Below are positions 1 through 7,146 of a stretch of DNA of 12,532 bases, piece after piece. The notes below the pieces were generated by a model. It was given only the letters and a program-made list of their open reading frames with translations, was not told where the DNA came from and searched no databases. This DNA comes from a virus (Duplodnaviria; Heunggongvirae; Uroviricota; Caudoviricetes): IMG/VR virus record IMGVR_UViG_2548876964_000021; one strand, given 5' to 3'. The position numbers were made by a program, and so were the translations under genes. Numbering within the stretch: the stretch's first letter is position 1; each line of letters opens with the position of its first letter.

Positions 1-357
1 GAGCAGGCGTTGTGGGCCCGTCGTCCGTCTGGCACCATCCATCACAGCGATAAAGGCTCTCAGTATGTGTCACTGGCCTATACGGAGCGACTAAAAGAAG
101 CCGGATTACTGGCATCAACAGGGAGTACAGGCGACTCGTATGACAACGCGATGGCTGAGAGCATCAATGGTCTTTACAAAGCGGAGGTAATACACCGTAA
201 GAGCTGGAAAAACCGTGCAGAAGTGGAACTGGCCACACTAACGTGGGTGGACTGGTATAACAATCGACGATTGCTGGGAAGGCTGGGCCATACTCCTCCG
301 GCAGAAGCAGAAAAAGCTTATTATGCTTCCATCGGAAACGATGATCTGGCAGCCTGA
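1..357 (+). CDS. IS3-family transposase OrfB, C-terminal fragment (5' partial; the real start lies outside the window)
   Basis: Translation ...HHSDKGSQYVSLAYTERLKEAGLLASTGSTGDSYDNAMAESINGLYKAEVIHRKSWKNRAEVELATLTWVDWYNNRRLLGRLGHTPPAEAEKAYYA... matches the C-terminal integrase core of IS3-family OrfB proteins, including the conserved Glu of the DDE triad in AESINGLYKAE. The frame is open back to base 1; the TTG at 10 chosen by the ORF track is not a true start. Confidence 0.85.
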   Translation, partial: EQALWARRPSGTIHHSDKGSQYVSLAYTERLKEAGLLASTGSTGDSYDNAMAESINGLYKAEVIHRKSWKNRAEVELATLTWVDWYNNRRLLGRLGHTPPAEAEKAYYASIGNDDLAA

Positions 358-399
358 GTTCACAGATAAAACACTCTCCAGGAAACCCGGGGCGGTTCA
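1..399 (+). mobile_element. Right-hand part of an IS3-family insertion sequence (IS629/IS1203-like), cut by the window edge
   Basis: The transposase frame is open from base 1. After its stop (355-357) the sequence ends ...CCCGGGGCGGTTCA at 399, i.e. a 5'-TG...CA-3' IS3-type terminus (reverse complement TGAACCGCCCCGGG...). The exact end at 399 is from recalled IS629 terminal sequence plus the TG/CA rule and was not verified. Confidence 0.65.
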
Positions 400-657
400 G
401 TTTTCGCCCTGTTCAGCCGACGTCAGACAACGTTGTTCGCCTTCAATCACTGTCGTTGGCTTCTGAACATCGCGGATCCAATATCTGACCGTTGCGCCGC
501 GCAAAAACGGGAATTTAGACCGGTATTTGAACGGCACCCGGATGAAACCCGGTTTAATTTCCACATCACCAAGTTCTAAATGCGTGATGTCCTTGCGTTT
601 TAGCAAATAGCGATCGGCTAAGGCTAACGCAAGAGCGCATACACCCCAGCCAATCAT
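397..657 (-). pseudogene. IS-truncated second gene of the lysis cassette (first 86 codons of a membrane-anchored protein; candidate antiholin, endolysin or spanin)
   Basis: The ATG at 657 overlaps the holin stop in an ATGA arrangement. The N-terminus MIGWGVCALALALADRYLLKRK is a hydrophobic anchor followed by basic residues. The frame runs into the IS terminus, and its stop codon TGA (399-397 on the minus strand) is the TGA of the IS end TGAACC..., so the native 3' part of the gene is missing. Confidence 0.5.
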
Positions 658-983
658 TTCCCACCTCCCTTTTTCACCAAACTTGTAAGAACATTCAGAA
701 TGCTATCGATATTCACTCGTTTCATCCCTGAAATCACCTCATGACCGTTATTGCTGGCTATCGTTACCATTAAGTACGTAATTGATAACTCCCAGCCCTC
801 GTGTTGCCCCAATAGGTACGCCACCGCGCCAGCTGTCACTGCAACAAAGATCTCCGTAACCAATCCCAACAAATTGCCAGACTGGCGACCGTCTCGGACA
901 TCCATCAGGAACGTGCCTATCCCACCAATTACTGAAAGCAGGAGCGCAATAGCAACTGGAGCTAATTCCTGTGTGTCAAGCAC
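654..983 (-). CDS. Holin, lambda S-like (109 aa, 2-3 transmembrane segments, basic C-terminus)
   Basis: GTG start at 983 preceded by AGGAGG with 6-nt spacing; an in-frame TGA upstream excludes a longer ORF. Predicted transmembrane segments: APVAIALLLSVIGGIGTFLM, LLGLVTEIFVAVTAGAVAYLL, LSITYLMVTIASNNG; C-terminal tail ...LVKKGGGK. The pattern resembles lambda S as recalled (GIG...RGR...ITSV...IGS...KRF). Four-base overlap with the downstream gene. Confidence 0.6.
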   Translation of the reverse strand: MLDTQELAPVAIALLLSVIGGIGTFLMDVRDGRQSGNLLGLVTEIFVAVTAGAVAYLLGQHEGWELSITYLMVTIASNNGHEVISGMKRVNIDSILNVLTSLVKKGGGK

Positions 984-989
984 AAGTTC

Positions 990-1009
990 CCTCCTACGTT
1001 GTCAGGAGG
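990..1009 (-). promoter_or_regulatory. 6-bp inverted repeat (CCTCCT-8 nt-AGGAGG) able to fold the holin Shine-Dalgarno into a hairpin
   Basis: Seen directly: 990-995 CCTCCT and 1004-1009 AGGAGG are reverse complements. On the minus-strand mRNA this gives CCUCCU-GACAACGU-AGGAGG-GAACUU-GUG, so the holin SD is the 3' arm of the stem. The same palindrome explains the apparent plus-strand SD at 1004-1009. Confidence 0.3.
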
Positions 1010-1011
1010 TA

Positions 1012-1248
1012 ATGGTATGCAAAGTAACTTCTCAACCGGTCATGCAAAGACAACAAGCGGAAAAAGAAAAGCAAAGCCTGCTACAGCTCGTCAGGGATAA
1101 AACTCAGCTCTGGGACTCACAGTTACGGCTAGGCATTATTTCCGTTCAGGGTAAACAAAAATTAACCGAGTGGATTCTCTATGCGCAGAAAGTCGAATCC
1201 ACGGATACCTCCATCCTTCCAGTAACGTTTCCCGAAAAGCCGGAATGA
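1012..1248 (+). CDS. Hypothetical small protein (79 aa); uncertain whether real or leader sequence of the holin operon
   Basis: ATG at 1012 in frame to TGA 1246-1248, translation MVCKVTSQPVMQRQQAEKEKQSLLQLVRDKTQLWDSQLRLGIISVQGKQKLTEWILYAQKVESTDTSILPVTFPEKPE. AGGAGG lies only 2 nt upstream (poor spacing) and is the complement of the holin-leader palindrome. Several rare codons (AGA, AGG, CTA, CGG). A GC-rich hairpin follows the stop. No homolog recognised. Confidence 0.25.
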   Translation: MVCKVTSQPVMQRQQAEKEKQSLLQLVRDKTQLWDSQLRLGIISVQGKQKLTEWILYAQKVESTDTSILPVTFPEKPE

Positions 1249-1251
1249 GGA

Positions 1252-1271
1252 AAGGCCCGGAATCGGGCCTT
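1252..1271. terminator. GC-rich hairpin (AAGGCCCG-GAAT-CGGGCCTT), possible terminator or RNA structural element
   Basis: Perfect 8-bp stem with a 4-nt loop, 4 nt after the stop of the 1012-1248 ORF and about 270 nt upstream of the holin start on the other strand. Flanking sequence is A/T-rich but there is no clean U-tract on either strand. Confidence 0.3.
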
Positions 1272-1582
1272 AATTAATATCTATAAGCTCAACAAATAAG
1301 AGCTAACAATTTTGTTAATTTCCTCTGGAAATAATGCATTGTGCTTATATATACCTGAAGCTATATTAAAGAGCGTCATGTAAAAAATAAACCAATCAAT
1401 TAAATCTATTTTCAACAAACAAGTCAAAATTTTTAACAGATATGTATAGAAATGGCAAGCCATAAATTAATAATGACATCCTTAATAAGTCTAAAGAAAC
1501 ACTAAATAGATAAAATATAAATTATTACATCCAAAAATATAGAAAGTGTTGGCAATCTTGCAACTCATTATCAATACAATAT

Positions 1583-1612
1583 TGACATCCCTTTAGCGCT
1601 CAGTTTAAAATT
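1583..1612 (+). promoter_or_regulatory. Candidate sigma70-type promoter for the acetyltransferase gene (TTGACA-18 nt-TAAAAT)
   Basis: TTGACA at 1583-1588 and TAAAAT at 1607-1612 within a 470-bp AT-rich upstream region. A second candidate -10 (TATAAT, 1688-1693) lacks a good -35. Sequence match only. Confidence 0.2.
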
Positions 1613-1738
1613 AACATTTGTGTTTACATTGTGCGTTGATTTAGTTTAGCAGGAACGCAGTAACACACTGATGATTATTGTTTTAATTATAATGTCAATA
1701 TATAAACATAGAAACCAAAAAATATAGGCAGTTGCAAT

Positions 1739-2311
1739 ATGTTATGTTACTTAATAGCTATTCACTTTGTCATCTTCGGGAATTCAAAAGCTCTATTGAG
1801 CTACTGGATGGCTGAAATCATCAGGCGTGAAAAAATGGATGTTTGGCGACTATTAAGAGAGAAGAAGCAGCGCAATCGGAATTTCCTTTTCTGGTGGAGA
1901 CTGGCTAATGAAATGTATATTAATGGCAATAAATTACATAAGAAAGCAGCCAGAAAGTTAAACAATAATATAATTAACAGATTTGGTTGCGAAATTGGAT
2001 TGGGCGCAAATATTGGAAAAGGTTTAACAATTCCCCATCATACTGGAATTGTTGTTCATTTTGCTGTTGATGCTGGTGAAAATCTGGTTTTGCGACAGAA
2101 TACTACCATTGGACAGGTAGATGGTGACATGCCTGGTTCAAGAGTAAAAATTGGTAATAACGTTGATATCGGAGCTAATTGTTGCATCATTGGATTATCA
2201 CGTAAAATTGGGGATAATGTAAAAATAGGTGCAATGTCTTTTATAAATAAAGATATACCATCGAACTGCACATATATAACAAAAAAGAGCGGTGTTGTAT
2301 TGTATAAATAG
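1739..2311 (+). CDS. Hexapeptide-repeat (left-handed beta-helix) O-acetyltransferase, serine acetyltransferase/WcaB-like; the start may be internal at 1808 or 1835
   Basis: Translation ...FLFWWRLANEMYINGNKLHKKAARKLNNNIINRFGCEIGLGANIGKGLTIPHHTGIVVHFAVDAGENLVLRQNTTIGQVDGDMPGSRVKIGNNVDIGANCCIIGLSRKIGDNVKIGAMSFINKDIPSNCTY... shows the SAT-type N-terminal helix, [LIV]-G-x-x-x-x hexapeptide repeats and a His in PHHTG at the catalytic position. Alignment with recalled CysE and WcaB sequences suggests the true start is the Met at 1835 (about 158 aa); the longest ORF begins at 1739. No strong SD at any candidate start. AT-rich and on the opposite strand to the phage genes. Confidence 0.85.
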   Translation: MLCYLIAIHFVIFGNSKALLSYWMAEIIRREKMDVWRLLREKKQRNRNFLFWWRLANEMYINGNKLHKKAARKLNNNIINRFGCEIGLGANIGKGLTIPHHTGIVVHFAVDAGENLVLRQNTTIGQVDGDMPGSRVKIGNNVDIGANCCIIGLSRKIGDNVKIGAMSFINKDIPSNCTYITKKSGVVLYK

Positions 2312-2319
2312 AGTACATG

Positions 2320-2347
2320 AAGCCATCAATATTTCTATCGATGGCTT
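2320..2347. terminator. Bidirectional rho-independent terminator candidate between the convergent acetyltransferase and tfa genes
   Basis: Inverted repeat AAGCCATC (2320-2327) / GATGGCTT (2340-2347) with a 12-nt loop. On the plus strand it is followed by TATCCTTTTATT; on the minus strand it lies 8 nt after the tfa stop and is followed by a U-rich stretch. Confidence 0.5.
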
Positions 2348-2354
2348 TATCCTT

Positions 2355-2933
2355 TTATTGCGGGGCGACTGGCCACTCAACATCCGATGCTACTGTTGTA
2401 TCAACACGATTCAACAATACCCGATATGTCTTCCATGCAGTCAGTAACGATGCCTCTTCCTCCGTCGCAATATCCAAATCTACGGCATCCTGAAGTGGCG
2501 CAATATGCTCACTGGCCATCTGCATCAGGCTGTTTTTTGTTTCTTCCGCCTTCCGGATCCGGAACAGTTTTTCTGCTTCTGCATCTTTCACCCAGGCTGT
2601 GCCGTTCCACTTCTGAAACTCCCCTTCCGGGGATAACCAGGTGACATTTTCCGGTAATGGGCCAAGTTCAGAAATAAATAACGCGTCGCCGGAAGCCACG
2701 TCATAGACGGTTTTTCCCCGATGGTCTTCAACGAGATTCCACGATGCCTCATCACTGTTGAAAACGGCCACGAAGCCAGCCGGAATATCTGGCGGGGCAA
2801 TATCGGTACTGTTTGCAGGCAGACCTGTATGAGGTGGAATGTATGCATCACCTTCACCAATAAACTCATTGGTTCCGGTCAGTAGATTATAAATTTTTAT
2901 GGTCCGTGATTGTTCACTCATTCTGAATGTCAT
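2355..2933 (-). CDS. tfa: Tail fibre assembly protein (lambda Tfa-like chaperone)
   Basis: 192 aa, [65 protein letters not shown]...LLNRVDT..., near-identical along its length to lambda Tfa as recalled. Its start overlaps the fibre stop (TAATG). Confidence 0.93.
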
Positions 2934-5782
2934 TATGCAAGCCTCACAATATAGTTAAATGCGATGTTTTTTACGGTGTTTTCTTCGTTACCCGTAGCGT
3001 TAACGGTGATGGTGTGTCCGTGGGGACCAATAATGACAGAATGGGCATGAGCACCAATGCCGATAGTGTGGTTATGGGCACCGATATATACATTGTGAGC
3101 ATGCCCGCCTGCGCTCGACGTGGTACCAGTACCTAACGCAGCGTTAAAACCGGCTGATACACCATTCCCCGCGCCAGTGTGACCAACAGGTATATTGTGT
3201 GAATGATTTCCAGCGCTATTCGTAGTTTTTGTGCCGTAATCAAATGAACTGGTCGTTTTAGTACCGTAATCAAACGACGATGTGGTTTTCGTCCCCAAAT
3301 CCGTACTGGATGCGCTGGCGCTGTGGGTGTGCGATTTAATGCCGTCCTGTTCCTGAGACAATACGGCACGACCACTGCCGGGCTTGCCCTTAATCGTCCA
3401 GCCACGCATATCAGGAATAACGCCTGACGGATAAGCCGCTGCAAGTTTCGGGTATGCAGATTTGTCAAAAGTCTGCCCCTGCATCAGGGCATAACCAGAC
3501 GGAACGGTATCTGATGGCCACGGGATTGGTGCGCCGACTGGGTAGCTTTCTGGTGGAAGATTTTTCGAGGTATAAACTTCTGCCCAGTCTTCCTCAAAAC
3601 CATAACCGTCTCTTGAAGAACGGTAGAACAGACCACCATTTCTGTAATGCGCCTTCATCTGCAAGGTCGGGCAACTTCCGACTCCGGTATAGAAGTTAAC
3701 CAGAATATAGCTGTCGGCAGAGCGAATGACATTGTAAGCGCCTGATTCGGCATTCCAGGGAACGCCCCCATCCGCATCGGCATACGTATCCGTTGCTCTT
3801 CTGGCAAAAGCAGCAACATGCGCAGCGGTTAAAGTGATATCAGTAGAACCATCAAACGAGACGCCATTGATAGTACATGCTGTCTGCAACTTGGTCGCTG
3901 TAGCCGCATTACCAGAGGTGTCCTGATCCCCTTTGGCATTGACGCCGGGAATTGAATCTTTTGACGTATAGACCTGCGCCCATTCAGACCAGTTGGCAGA
4001 ATCAGTATCACGCCGCGAACGGATATGTACGGGCGCATGGTCACCGCTCGTGCCACTCCAGCCAATGAATAACTCACCTTCGCCAGCAGCGGTGGCACCT
4101 TTAAGGTGAAGCACATTGCCATAGGTGGAAGGGTAGCCATTGTTGTATGCCTCATACAGCTGAATCCCGGATGTTCCCTGTGCATTCGCCTCTAGGGCCG
4201 TTACGCGACCGCGAGATACCAGAGTATTGATATTAATGTCAGCCGAACCATCGAATCTGACGCCATTAATGTTTATGGCTGTTTTTAATTTCGTCGCGGT
4301 GTCGGCGTTCCCTGTCAGCGCCCCGGTGATCCCACCGTTGAAAGTCTGGCGTGCACTCCATTTGTTAGCCGTGCTCAACAGGGGGATCTTTTCACCGCTT
4401 GTGCCAAGTTCTCTTAAATCAAGGTATTGGATAACAGCAAGGACGCTTGTTTTGGCCAGAATATCGCGACCGACTGACGTTAAGTCAGTCTGAGAAATAG
4501 TGTCTGTACCGGTAAAGTACGGCAATTTATTTGCGCCTGTAGCAAGACCAGCAAGCGCGGTTAAAGTTGCATCCAGAGGCTGTTTGCCTGCCAGCGCATT
4601 TGTCATTGTTGTCGCAAAGTTCGGGTCATTACCAAGTGCTGCGGCAAGCTCATTCAGGGTATCAAGAGCTTCTGGTGATGAACCAACCAATGCGGATATG
4701 GCAGCTCTTACATAAGCGGTCGTAGCAATCTGCGTGTTATTCGTACCCTGTGCAGCGGTAGGCGCAGTAGGTATTCCCGTTAATGCAGGACTTGCTAAAG
4801 GAGCTTTAAGAGCCAGAGCATTGTTGATAGTTGTGCTGAAATTCGGGTCGTTATTGATCGCAGCAGCTATTTCTTTAAGCGTATCCAGTGTGCCAGGTGC
4901 ACCGTTGATAAGTGCCGTTATAGCTGCCTTAACAAAGGCTGTATTTGCGATCTGCGTGCTATTTGTACCTTGCGCTGCCGTCGGCGCGGTTGGCGTTCCT
5001 GTCAGACTCGGGCTTTCTATTGGCGCTTTGGTATCAGCAAGATCTTTTACAGACTTAACGGCTTTAGGGGTAGCCGCCATTGTTTCGCTGTCGCTGTTAG
5101 TTTCGCTACTGAGCTGAACTAATCCCTTTTGCGTTGTGCTTGCATCCTGCGCCGTATACTTACTGTTCGCCAGATCGTAGGCTTTTTTAACTGCCAGCGA
5201 ACTTGCAGCAACATCACTTCTGCTACTGGTTACAGAGTCTGAAATATCAATGCCGATCGTGCGGTTAATACGCTCGGATGTATCAATCATCTCCTGGGTA
5301 ATGGCTGATACTCCAGCAGGGATATTCACCGTACAAACAAGCAGCTCCCCATCTCCTAACTGATATGAATCGGTATAGGTTCTGGTAACAAATTCAGCCG
5401 CATGAATATGTGACGCGGTATTAACCTGATAGGTATCCTCTCCAAGGAGGTATCTTCCCTTCAGCACAATTGCATATTTCTTGCCTGCACTAAGTGCAAG
5501 AGGAATATCCGTACATTGCTGAATAGTTACCTGGTAGAATTCACCAATATCCACCGACGCCGCGCCTGCGGTTTTATCTCCATCCACTGAGGTGATTAAC
5601 AGGTTCATCCCACCGCCAGGCTTAGGTAAGAAACCGGCATAAAATCCCGGGTCAACAATCCCCCTGAATTTTCGGTTTAGCGCGGCTGACAGATATGGTT
5701 CGTGGTATTGCACATCAGCAACCAGAGCCAACGACTCGGGTGATGGGTAAGTAACCGATGTAACAACTGTAACGTCATTCAT
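2933..5782 (-). CDS. Tail fibre protein (949 aa), mosaic: distinct N-terminal attachment domain, P2 H/T-even-type fibre repeats, lambda Stf-like C-terminal tip
   Basis: Start taken at the ATG at 5782 ([10 protein letters not shown]...), which has AAGGA 8 nt upstream and lies 8 nt after the upstream gene stop. Middle region ...[45 protein letters not shown]...[28 protein letters not shown]... resembles P2 H/T4 gp37 repeats. C-terminus ...[47 protein letters not shown]...[40 protein letters not shown] matches the lambda Stf C-terminus. Confidence 0.9.
3225..3314. repeat. Tandem 30-bp repeat (2 good copies plus 1 degenerate) inside the fibre tip coding region
   Basis: 3225-3254 gtttttgtgccgtaatcaaatgaactggtc; 3255-3284 gttttagtaccgtaatcaaacgacgatgtg; 3285-3314 degenerate. 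Encodes the [10 protein letters not shown] decapeptide repeats on the minus strand. Confidence 0.8.
4580..5020. repeat. Diverged tandem duplication of about 219 bp inside the fibre shaft coding region (approximate bounds)
   Basis: Two roughly 73-aa units, [74 protein letters not shown] and [75 protein letters not shown]; the matching DNA blocks are visible around 4600-4800 and 4820-5020. Confidence 0.75.
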
Positions 5783-5793
5783 CAAGCATATCC

Positions 5794-6228
5794 TTATGCT
5801 GTAGTCGTGTTTATGGCCATAACTGCGGTATATGTTTTGCCCACATACAGCGAGTCTTCCTGGACACAAATAATGGCGATTGGCTTGTTCTCGTTATCCA
5901 GAACAACCAGAGTGTTGAATGGGTAGTTTTTCCCTTCCTGCAACTGGCTTTGATCAAGGTCCATTCGGACAGTAATTATCCCACCTGAGTAGGTTGGCAC
6001 GAGGTTGATGGTACAAAATTGGCTGGTCAGTTCTGCCAGATCGAAAGCCTTTGGCAGTTCTCCAATCTCATAAGTGCCATCTCCTTTCTTAGTAACCAGA
6101 GAACTGGTACCGAAAACGGCCTTGCTGATTAAAAATCGAGAGCCTTTGTTAATGGACGATTCAGCGCGCCGCTGATAGTAATAGTCCAACAACTGACTCT
6201 TATAGAGGTTTGTTGAGACGTCAGACAT
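5794..6228 (-). CDS. Hypothetical tail protein (144 aa) immediately upstream of the tail fibre; possible fibre-associated structural or assembly protein (P1 R-like position)
   Basis: ATG at 6228 with GGGAAAA upstream; ends 8 nt before the fibre start. No motif recognised; assignment is by position only. Confidence 0.6.
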
Positions 6229-6278
6229 GATTTTCCCTAATCACTGTTGTGAAGCCTCATTGTAAGAGAAGTAACTTG

Positions 6279-6303
6279 TCACCCCGCCCTGCGGACGGGG
6301 TGA
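6279..6303. other. Intercistronic GC-rich hairpin (TCACCCCG-9 nt-CGGGGTGA) between the baseplate genes and the fibre module
   Basis: Perfect 8-bp inverted repeat, 3 nt after the stop of the 279-aa gene and about 50 nt before the 144-aa gene start, in an otherwise tightly overlapping operon. No U-tract, so not a classical intrinsic terminator. Confidence 0.4.
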
Positions 6304-6306
6304 TTG

Positions 6307-7146
6307 TCAGGCGTCGCTATCCAGCAACAAATCATCTGCGCGGGTGCGATCAAACGTAGGTGTCGCTTTCACAATAGTGCCACCAGGCGTTGCGGTGATC
6401 GGGGCGCTAATCGACGTAACTCCAGTAAGCGAAGTTGTATCCGAAGTTTCAAACCAGCAGAATGCTTTTTCGGTATCAGAAATCTCGTTCAAAGTGATCA
6501 TGTCGGCCTGTTCATTTACAACAACCGACAAATAGAGCGTAAGCCCATCAAACACTATATGCAGTGGCAGTAGAGGCTTTACGAACTGATTAAACTTTCT
6601 GAGAATTTCTTCTGTAATTGCGGACTGATCTATCGTGCCAGTAATACCCATTGTCCGGGCCAGGTCGTTTATGGGAATACTGATCATCCCTCTGGAAGTC
6701 AGAAACATCTCGCCGAATGTGCCGCCGGTAGTCTCCAATGTGCTTTCTGGTATTAGAACTGTGCCATAGGGATGACGCTCAAGGTCCACCGGTGCATATA
6801 TCGGATCCCATAAAACAGAAATACCGTTAAATTCGCGGTAAATTGTCTGGTTTATAGGACGTTCAGTTCCCTTAAAGTGGATCTCATCAAGCCGCTGTTG
6901 TAACAACATCGGAACGGAAGATGAGTCCGAGGTTCTGATAGTAAAGAACTGGCCAAGTTCATTTGTCCTGGTCTCCAGATCCTCCTTGCTCATGGAGAAA
7001 ATAGACTTCCGGTTGGTAATTCGCTCCAACCATGGGTCAACAAAGGTGTCCATCATTGACTGAACCAAATCAGCCAATGATTTATAGAGCAATGACTTTT
7101 GCTTAGCTGATGTAAGCCGGTTATTAAACCAGGAACGCTGCATCAC
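6307..7146 (-). CDS. Putative baseplate / tail protein (279 aa)
   Basis: Start overlaps the stop of the 477-aa gene (ATGA), placing it in the same coupled operon between a J-like wedge protein and the fibre module. No specific motif recognised. Confidence 0.65.
   Translation of the reverse strand: MMQRSWFNNRLTSAKQKSLLYKSLADLVQSMMDTFVDPWLERITNRKSIFSMSKEDLETRTNELGQFFTIRTSDSSSVPMLLQQRLDEIHFKGTERPINQTIYREFNGISVLWDPIYAPVDLERHPYGTVLIPESTLETTGGTFGEMFLTSRGMISIPINDLARTMGITGTIDQSAITEEILRKFNQFVKPLLPLHIVFDGLTLYLSVVVNEQADMITLNEISDTEKAFCWFETSDTTSLTGVTSISAPITATPGGTIVKATPTFDRTRADDLLLDSDA

Follow-up and report, generated by a model that had tools for sequence, protein, structure and literature searches.

Transposition of IS629 into the antiholin gene lydB of a P1-like phage-plasmid from Shiga-toxin Escherichia coli O111:H8

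The stretch of DNA analysed here, 12,532 nucleotides of a caudoviricete virus (IMG/VR record IMGVR_UViG_2548876964_000021; hereafter the window), begins inside an insertion sequence (IS) of the IS629/IS1203 type that abuts lydB, the antiholin gene of a P1-like phage-plasmid. The window is the entire draft contig AICG01000097.1 of assembly GCA_000446245.1, and its positions 1-12493 are 100% identical to positions 60870-73362 of p08_4347-1 (CP077546.1), a P1-like phage-plasmid of 101.8 kb (101,763 bp) whose host is the Shiga-toxin E. coli O111:H8 strain 08-4347. The draft contig begins inside the IS, and the left end of the element was read from p08_4347-1, to which the contig is identical over 12,493 nt. 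The minus strand of the window encodes, in this order, the truncated lydB (lydB'), lydA, U, S, R, 16, bplA, pmgA, sit, and the end of pmgB, with synteny to P1 kept and 95-99% nucleotide identity where genes were compared. The complete plasmid further encodes c1, the late-promoter activator, terminase, phd/doc, parA/parB, a rep gene, ban (dnaB), dmt, lyz, and ssb. Synteny, identity, and these maintenance and immunity genes assign it to the P1-like phage-plasmids (Punavirus type), and its lineage is without the cin invertase and the invertible C segment of that type. The features around the insertion are the following.

1-399, plus strand: right-hand 399 nt of the 1310-bp element IS629/IS1203 (IS3 family), placed by identity to CP077546.1, where the IS occupies 59959-61268.
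375-399, plus strand: right terminal inverted repeat (IRR), ending in TCTCCAGGAAACCCGGGGCGGTTCA, located by a repeat search on the complete copy; its outermost TCA reads TGA on the minus strand.
400-402, no strand: one GTT copy of the 3-bp target duplication, lydB codon 86 (AAC, Asn), from comparison of the flanks with the empty site.
397-657, minus strand: truncated lydB (antiholin, antagonist of LydA), codons 1-86 of 147 plus a TGA supplied by the IS, from the list of open reading frames, identity to P1, and Pfam.
654-983, minus strand: lydA, P1-type holin of 109 aa, intact, with the length and position of P1 lydA and a match to Pfam Phage_holin_3_3.
1012-1030, minus strand: late promoter LPdar (-22 box and -10) of lydA-lydB-hdf-darA-ddrA-ddrB, from the P1 annotation (L001 4613-4631).

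The position at which the IS ends is fixed by several observations. In megablast comparisons, P1-type homology to the window starts at base 400 in more than 100 phages and plasmids, and the matches to the left part, which are IS copies in Shiga-toxin (Stx) phages and in many E. coli replicons, stop at about 399. The element itself starts 910 nt left of the window. In the complete plasmid it spans 1310 bp (L003 8090-9399, L003 9399 corresponding to window position 399) and is bounded by 25-nt inverted repeats, TGAACCGCCCCGGAAATCCTGGAGA and its imperfect complement, whose arms (L003 8090-8114 and 9375-9399) are 88% complementary. Three further IS copies, 100% identical and located on p08_4347-1 and its sister plasmid p08_4455-1, end at the same bases. 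Within the window, the C-terminal part of the OrfB transposase is encoded by a frame at 10-357 (plus strand) that is open from base 1 and stops at 357; the integrase-core Pfam families rve, rve_3, and rve_2 match this region. The full element is labelled in RefSeq as an IS3-like IS1203-family transposase with a programmed frameshift and a frameshift pseudoknot, and its 404-aa transposase product matches the Pfam families HTH_Tnp_1, HTH_21, and rve. The element thus has the features of the IS3 family: a DDE (rve) transposase in two overlapping frames with a programmed -1 frameshift, imperfect terminal repeats of the form 5'-TG...CA-3' (TGAACC...GGTTCA), a length within 1.2-1.5 kb, and target duplications of 3-4 bp (GTT in lydB, GAT in pmgB, and GCT in an icd-like gene). 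The name IS629/IS1203 follows the RefSeq label and the 99.5-100% identity that the element shares with copies from Stx phages and from O111:H8 genomes. The element lies antisense to the dar operon.

The gene into which the element has moved is represented in the window by a minus-strand open reading frame (ORF) of 86 codons at 397-657; its stop codon, TGA at 399-397, comes from the IS, whose end TGAACCGCCCCGGG opens with these three bases. The predicted product consists of LydB residues 1-86 (window 400-657) with zero foreign residues and is already labelled 'lysis protein' in RefSeq. The lydB-lydA region of the window is 99.2% identical to P1 at the nucleotide level. In P1 and in the closely related plasmid pO111_2, intact lydB has 444 nt and encodes 147 aa, which leaves 61 codons absent from the window ORF. 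Against the Pfam family PF16084 (LydB), the window ORF matches profile positions 1-86 of 147 (E=1.4e-56), and an intact relative (P0001) is matched over positions 1-147. Because only the first 86 profile positions are covered, we read the window ORF as a fragment of a LydB family member and not as an intact member.

One could instead take the 86-codon ORF as a naturally short LydB that happens to lie beside an IS, with nothing truncated; it is, after all, open and has its own stop. The Pfam match, however, halts at position 86 of 147, the P1 and pO111_2 alleles read on for 61 more codons, and in the complete plasmid those missing codons sit across the IS. A search of 5.8 billion proteins returned a small LydB family of 16 clusters, in which the diverged homologues (48-66% identity) are all 147-149 aa long and the shorter hits are all fragments with at least 71% identity. 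Among the family members found there, none is a naturally short LydB ending at this position. As the diverged homologues are of full length and the shorter hits are fragments, residue 86 does not appear to be a natural end, and we give the natural short form practically no probability. These results bear out the initial annotation, which had described, from the letters alone, an IS3-family element in the gene after the holin, a terminus at 399, an ORF of 86 codons closed by the outermost bases of the IS, and a gene that had lost part of its length; it would have been contradicted by an intact homologue of the same length.

The truncated LydB is likely non-functional. The lost part holds the best-conserved block of the family in the homologue alignment, SEWLxIPT ... 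VTHGDSFxNPLYRIFP. An AlphaFold model of full-length LydB (mean pLDDT, the predicted local confidence score, of 74; built from 8 sequences) has a hydrophobic helix at its N terminus (residues 3-19) and, after it, one beta-sandwich domain, in which strands 84-93, 101-112, and 126-137 lie at or past the cut after residue 86. The expectation of lost function follows from the removal of this conserved block together with three long predicted beta-strands. When the model was compared with the PDB by Foldseek, all matches were weak and of a generic beta-sandwich kind (LEA14/WHy and Asf1, with TM scores of about 0.4-0.46).

The far side of the insertion can be read in p08_4347-1. There, the left flank is CACTGTT followed by TGAACC..., and the right flank is ...GGTTCA followed by GTTTTCGCC, as against CACTGTTTTCGCC at the empty site in P1 and pO111_2. 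The second GTT copy stands at the left IS end, outside the window. The IS is thus located between lydB codons 86 and 87, with codon 86 (GTT) duplicated. The remaining 61 lydB codons lie directly past the IS, where RefSeq annotates a 51-aa ORF with Met97 as its start, and after them hdf, darA, ddrA, and ddrB are intact. Given the GTT duplication and the intact lydB remainder and operon past the element, we conclude that the sequence records a simple transposition, by which the 3' end of lydB was displaced and not removed. The initial annotation had proposed that a 3-4 bp duplication be sought at the other IS end, and GTT is found there; its claim that the insertion had removed the native 3' end of the gene is not upheld, since the 61 codons and the rest of the operon are intact beyond the 1310-bp IS.

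An insertion accompanied by a deletion of the lydB 3' end and of neighbouring genes had to be weighed, given that the window stops inside the IS, its left side being invisible there, and that IEE-dependent deletions beside IS629 are known (PMC9943667). Nevertheless, in the only complete record that has this junction, which matches the window at 100% identity along 12,493 nt, the 3-bp duplication is perfect, and the lydB remainder, hdf, darA, ddrA, and ddrB follow without interruption. A deletion of this kind is very improbable.

The same 86-aa product and junction recur in a 2013 draft, in two further NCBI drafts, in one complete genome, and in Logan assemblies of Sequence Read Archive (SRA) data, amounting to about 20 samples, and the junction is present in 1 of 5426 complete E. 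coli genomes. An exact-pattern scan for the IS-lydB junction found nothing in IMG/VR, in GTDB species genomes, or in JGI metagenomes. That the junction might be an assembly chimera is suggested by the other end of the contig, which is evidently chimeric, its last 39-50 nt being chromosomal htpG joined via an 11-nt overlap. Yet the IS-lydB junction is also found in a complete long-range assembly, in three drafts, and in the Logan SRA assemblies, and it shows the target duplication expected of a real transposition, which makes a chimera here extremely improbable. The sequence data accordingly place a real junction in lydB that is specific to one clone.

A separate observation concerns the Logan contig L016 (SRR27379422, 1619 nt), whose P1-type allele is another one, distinguished by several synonymous changes and by having lydC. 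It ends exactly after lydB codon 86, which may point to a branch there in a second plasmid lineage but may equally be a by-product of the look-up. Its use as evidence for an insertion hot spot was rejected, as a look-up with the exact 86-aa protein favours contigs that break there.

The neighbouring lysis genes are preserved. The stop codon of lydA overlaps the start codon of lydB (ATGA, 654-657), and the truncated gene, like P1 lydB, comes immediately after lydA under the control of LPdar. The lydA product matches Phage_holin_3_3 with 30.1 bits (cut-off 28.4). The LPdar sequence is identical to that of P1, and identity between the window and P1 continues to window position 1043. In the plasmid, the SAR-endolysin gene lyz is intact (185/185 aa aligned, 98.9% identity), as is the pinholin gene lydD (84/84 aa, 100%); lydE is without its last 5 codons, beside an InsQ/TnpB-type element inserted where the 3' ends of pro and lydE overlap (CP077546.1 ~49017-50354). 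In P1, the late dar operon begins with lydA and lydB, and LydB counteracts the holin LydA; lysis is premature in phage with a lydB amber mutation, and it comes much earlier with plasmids from which lyz and lydA are expressed but lydB is not; the mode of action of LydB is unknown (PMC9025707). After induction, unopposed LydA, together with Lyz and LydD, would be expected to lyse the cell early. Since the antiholin gene is disrupted while lydA, LPdar, lyz, and lydD are intact, the likely outcome of induction, by analogy with P1, is early lysis and not absent lysis.

This bears on the suggestion, made in the initial annotation, that loss of an antiholin, endolysin, or spanin function would alter or abolish lysis. 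Altered timing is what we expect, and abolished lysis is the part that finds no support. A conversion to a non-lytic replicon by the insertion would be in line with the disruption of a lysis-module gene and with the further lesions of the plasmid, namely IS629 in pmgB, the TnpB element at lydE, and the loss of cin. The disrupted gene is, however, that of the antiholin, whose loss in P1 gives premature lysis (PMC9025707), and besides lydA with LPdar, lyz, and lydD, the genes for c1, the late-promoter activator, and terminase are annotated as intact in the plasmid. We therefore regard abolished lysis as unlikely.

An additional cost of the insertion may fall on the genes downstream. In the P1 annotation, LPdar is the sole promoter feature for the operon, and the IS puts 1.3 kb of untranslated antisense sequence between it and hdf-darA-ddrA-ddrB. 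The IS could thereby be polar on these genes and lower the supply of the Dar anti-restriction and head-size proteins; from the arrangement of the sequence, polarity on hdf-darA-ddrA-ddrB is plausible as the likelier extra cost of the insertion. Deletion of DarA or Hdf is known to exclude the other Dar proteins from the particle and to lower the share of normal-size heads from ~80% to ~15% (PMC12810830). A consensus scan of the IS region returned zero promoter-like and two terminator-like sites, no more than in shuffled sequences.

A second complete plasmid allowed the later fate of the insertion to be followed. The plasmid p08_4455-1 (CP077541.1, 101,761 bp) is collinear with p08_4347-1 and differs from it by one single-nucleotide polymorphism and zero other insertions or deletions in ~100 kb, apart from movements of IS629. 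It has no IS in lydB and instead shows a 2-bp deletion at the exact insertion site (CACTGTTCGCC, L004/L008 3604-4045), where p08_4347-1 reads CACTGTT, the IS, and GTTTTCGCC. Elsewhere, it has an extra IS629 with a GCT duplication that splits an icd-like gene of the immunity region (L008 49498 to L009 807). The right flank in p08_4347-1 is still GTTTT, from which it follows that the target of the insertion was the intact TTTT allele, and imprecise excision of the IS, with the ends joined at a TT microhomology, is therefore the best reading of the -2 allele. lydB remains broken in p08_4455-1, with 85 residues and a Gln before the stop.

Excision of this kind is documented. IEE-dependent excision of IS629, including small adjacent deletions and microhomology joins, has been described, and IEE is known in O111:H8 (PMC9943667; PMC9397093; bioRxiv 10.1101/2023.06.07.543989). 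The two plasmids present the empty donor site of such an excision, a scar in an otherwise identical genome. An intact iee gene is found in the chromosome of strain 08-4347, at 3380018-3382378 of NZ_CP077545.1 (L023 15019-17379, minus strand), in an SpLE1-like element adjoining serX; in this strain, the only one to which the comparison applies, it is identical to ECs1305 of strain Sakai at 2360/2361 nt, with an identical protein. In RefSeq, its product bears the name 'TOTE conflict system archaeo-eukaryotic primase domain-containing protein'. IS629 would thus appear to be still mobile in the O111:H8 clone, the lydB copy having been lost with a 2-bp scar and a new copy gained in the icd-like gene.

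The disruption of lydB and the dar genes could have been selected, or could act as a reversible IS switch of lysis timing, and need not be neutral decay: the allele persists in about 20 samples, and the IS has since gone from the site in the sister plasmid. Against this, the excision left a -2 frameshift that did not restore lydB, clonal descent explains the persistence, and only 1 of the 5426 complete genomes carries the junction. We consider a selected or reversible state quite unlikely. The broader idea that IS629 serves as a natural cut-out-and-reinsert element in an IEE host, and that repeated knock-outs affecting lysis timing, anti-restriction, and the antirepressor region amount to a selected taming of the P1-like prophage, is doubtful.

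The further lesions of the plasmid point to decay. One of them is visible as the last feature that the window shares with the plasmid:

12491-12493, plus strand: TGA, the first 3 nt of a second IS629 copy in direct orientation, the window equalling the plasmid to 12493.

This second copy (CP077546.1 73360-74669) is 100% identical to the first, has the same orientation, and is flanked by the target duplication GAT; its site, 12.1 kb from the first copy, is at the 3' end of pmgB and upstream of sit, within the late tail operon of LPsit. It is found in both sister plasmids and is absent from other P1-like plasmids. In addition, the plasmid lineage is without lydC, cin, cixL, Sv', and the 5' part of U'. 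What is left of U', a 3' remnant at window 1044-1275 with 86% identity to P1, now stands immediately upstream of LPdar. On the strength of the second IS629 in pmgB, the loss of cin and the invertible segment, and the TnpB element by lydE, and not of lost lysis, we favour IS-driven decay of the plasmid prophage, with IS629 having simply transposed into lydB and without a switch to a non-lytic state; we assign this reading a probability of about 0.85. The initial annotation had expected that such an insertion commonly fixes a prophage as defective or makes it a non-lytic replicon. A decaying prophage is a reasonable view in the light of the other lesions, and the proposed route through lost lysis is not borne out, given the intact lysis genes.

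Several points weigh against this reading or parts of it. Loss of LydB function, premature lysis, and polarity are predictions drawn solely from the sequence and from the genetics of P1. The LydB model is of moderate confidence, with 8 sequences behind it, and residues 1-86 may keep some residual activity. With no terminator above shuffled expectation in the IS, polarity would have to be of the Rho type, and an outward promoter of the IS may be present. The left IS end is taken from the complete plasmid and not from the draft contig itself. In principle, the 2-bp deletion in the run of four T residues in p08_4455-1 could have arisen by independent slippage or as an assembly error; such an event, however, would need to have fallen on the very site of the insertion, in two assemblies with no other insertion or deletion between them.

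The components of this case are already known, namely IS629/IS1203 insertions in enterohaemorrhagic E. coli (EHEC), the antiholin phenotype of P1 lydB, the dar operon, and IEE excision. Compared with EHEC insertions of IS629/IS1203, the element agrees in its length of 1310 bp, its orfA/orfB arrangement with a -1 frameshift, its TG...CA ends, its repeats of ~25 nt, and its 3-bp duplications; this clone stands apart solely in the target, the lydB gene of a P1-like plasmid. Mutants of P1 lydB, as well as IS and deletion mutants of the darA operon, were reportedly described by Schmidt et al. in 1996 and Iida et al. in 1998. The P1 lydB amber mutants affect the same gene (99% nucleotide identity) in the same operon under the same late promoter, with the antagonist of LydA lost and possible polarity on hdf and darA. 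They are laboratory mutants in which premature lysis was measured (PMC9025707), whereas the lesion described here is natural, its effect is predicted, and the plasmid carries extra lesions. The excision resembles that dependent on IEE (ECs1305) in that the host of p08_4347-1 has an intact iee, the sister plasmid has lost the IS with a small deletion that joining at a TT microhomology can explain, and a new copy appeared elsewhere; it differs in being read from a comparison of two genomes, and in its scar of -2 bp, as opposed to the precise excision in reporter assays. Like the lambda-type antiholin S107, LydB delays holin triggering, but S107 is embedded in the holin gene and LydB is a separate, unrelated protein of 147 aa, modelled as a helix and a beta-sandwich.

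Our findings thus describe one more inactivation of a gene by IS629 in a mobile element of Shiga-toxin E. coli, with no new mechanism or system. The prediction for this plasmid is that lysis would come early, the burst would be small, Dar protection would be lost, and functional tails would probably be lacking. p08_4347-1 and p08_4455-1 form a natural pair differing by IS629 movement, which might supply a marker for sub-typing of the clone and illustrate, from the field, an excision of the IEE type.

Some minor observations were made along the window. Beyond the U' remnant lies an AT-rich insert (1261-1738, 27% GC), and next to it a gene of 35% GC on the plus strand (1739-2311) that encodes a 190-aa hexapeptide O-acetyltransferase. 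The protein resembles EpsC/CysE/WcaB, below all curated cut-offs, and judged by its sequence could be a 'moron' gene that modifies surface polysaccharides. The arrangement at 1044-2354 is common to pO111_2 and many P1-like plasmids of Shiga-toxin-producing E. coli. Within the tail-fibre-assembly gene U, the Rfam family IS009, a candidate small RNA, matches window 2392-2590 (minus strand) with 192 bits, a match that probably reflects conservation of the coding sequence.

At the right end of the contig, the last 50 nt (12483-12532) are 100% identical to chromosomal htpG, a sequence found in nearly all E. coli genomes searched, and overlap the plasmid sequence by 11 nt (GGTCTGATTGA), including the TGA of the second IS629. 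An exact-pattern scan of IMG/VR for the pmgB-htpG junction gave no match, and the draft contig probably has a chimeric end here, as opposed to a real junction between plasmid and chromosome. Finally, the two IS629 copies bracket the 12.1-kb segment from lydB' to pmgB' (the truncated pmgB), an arrangement that resembles a compound transposon or could be a substrate for deletion of the tail genes.

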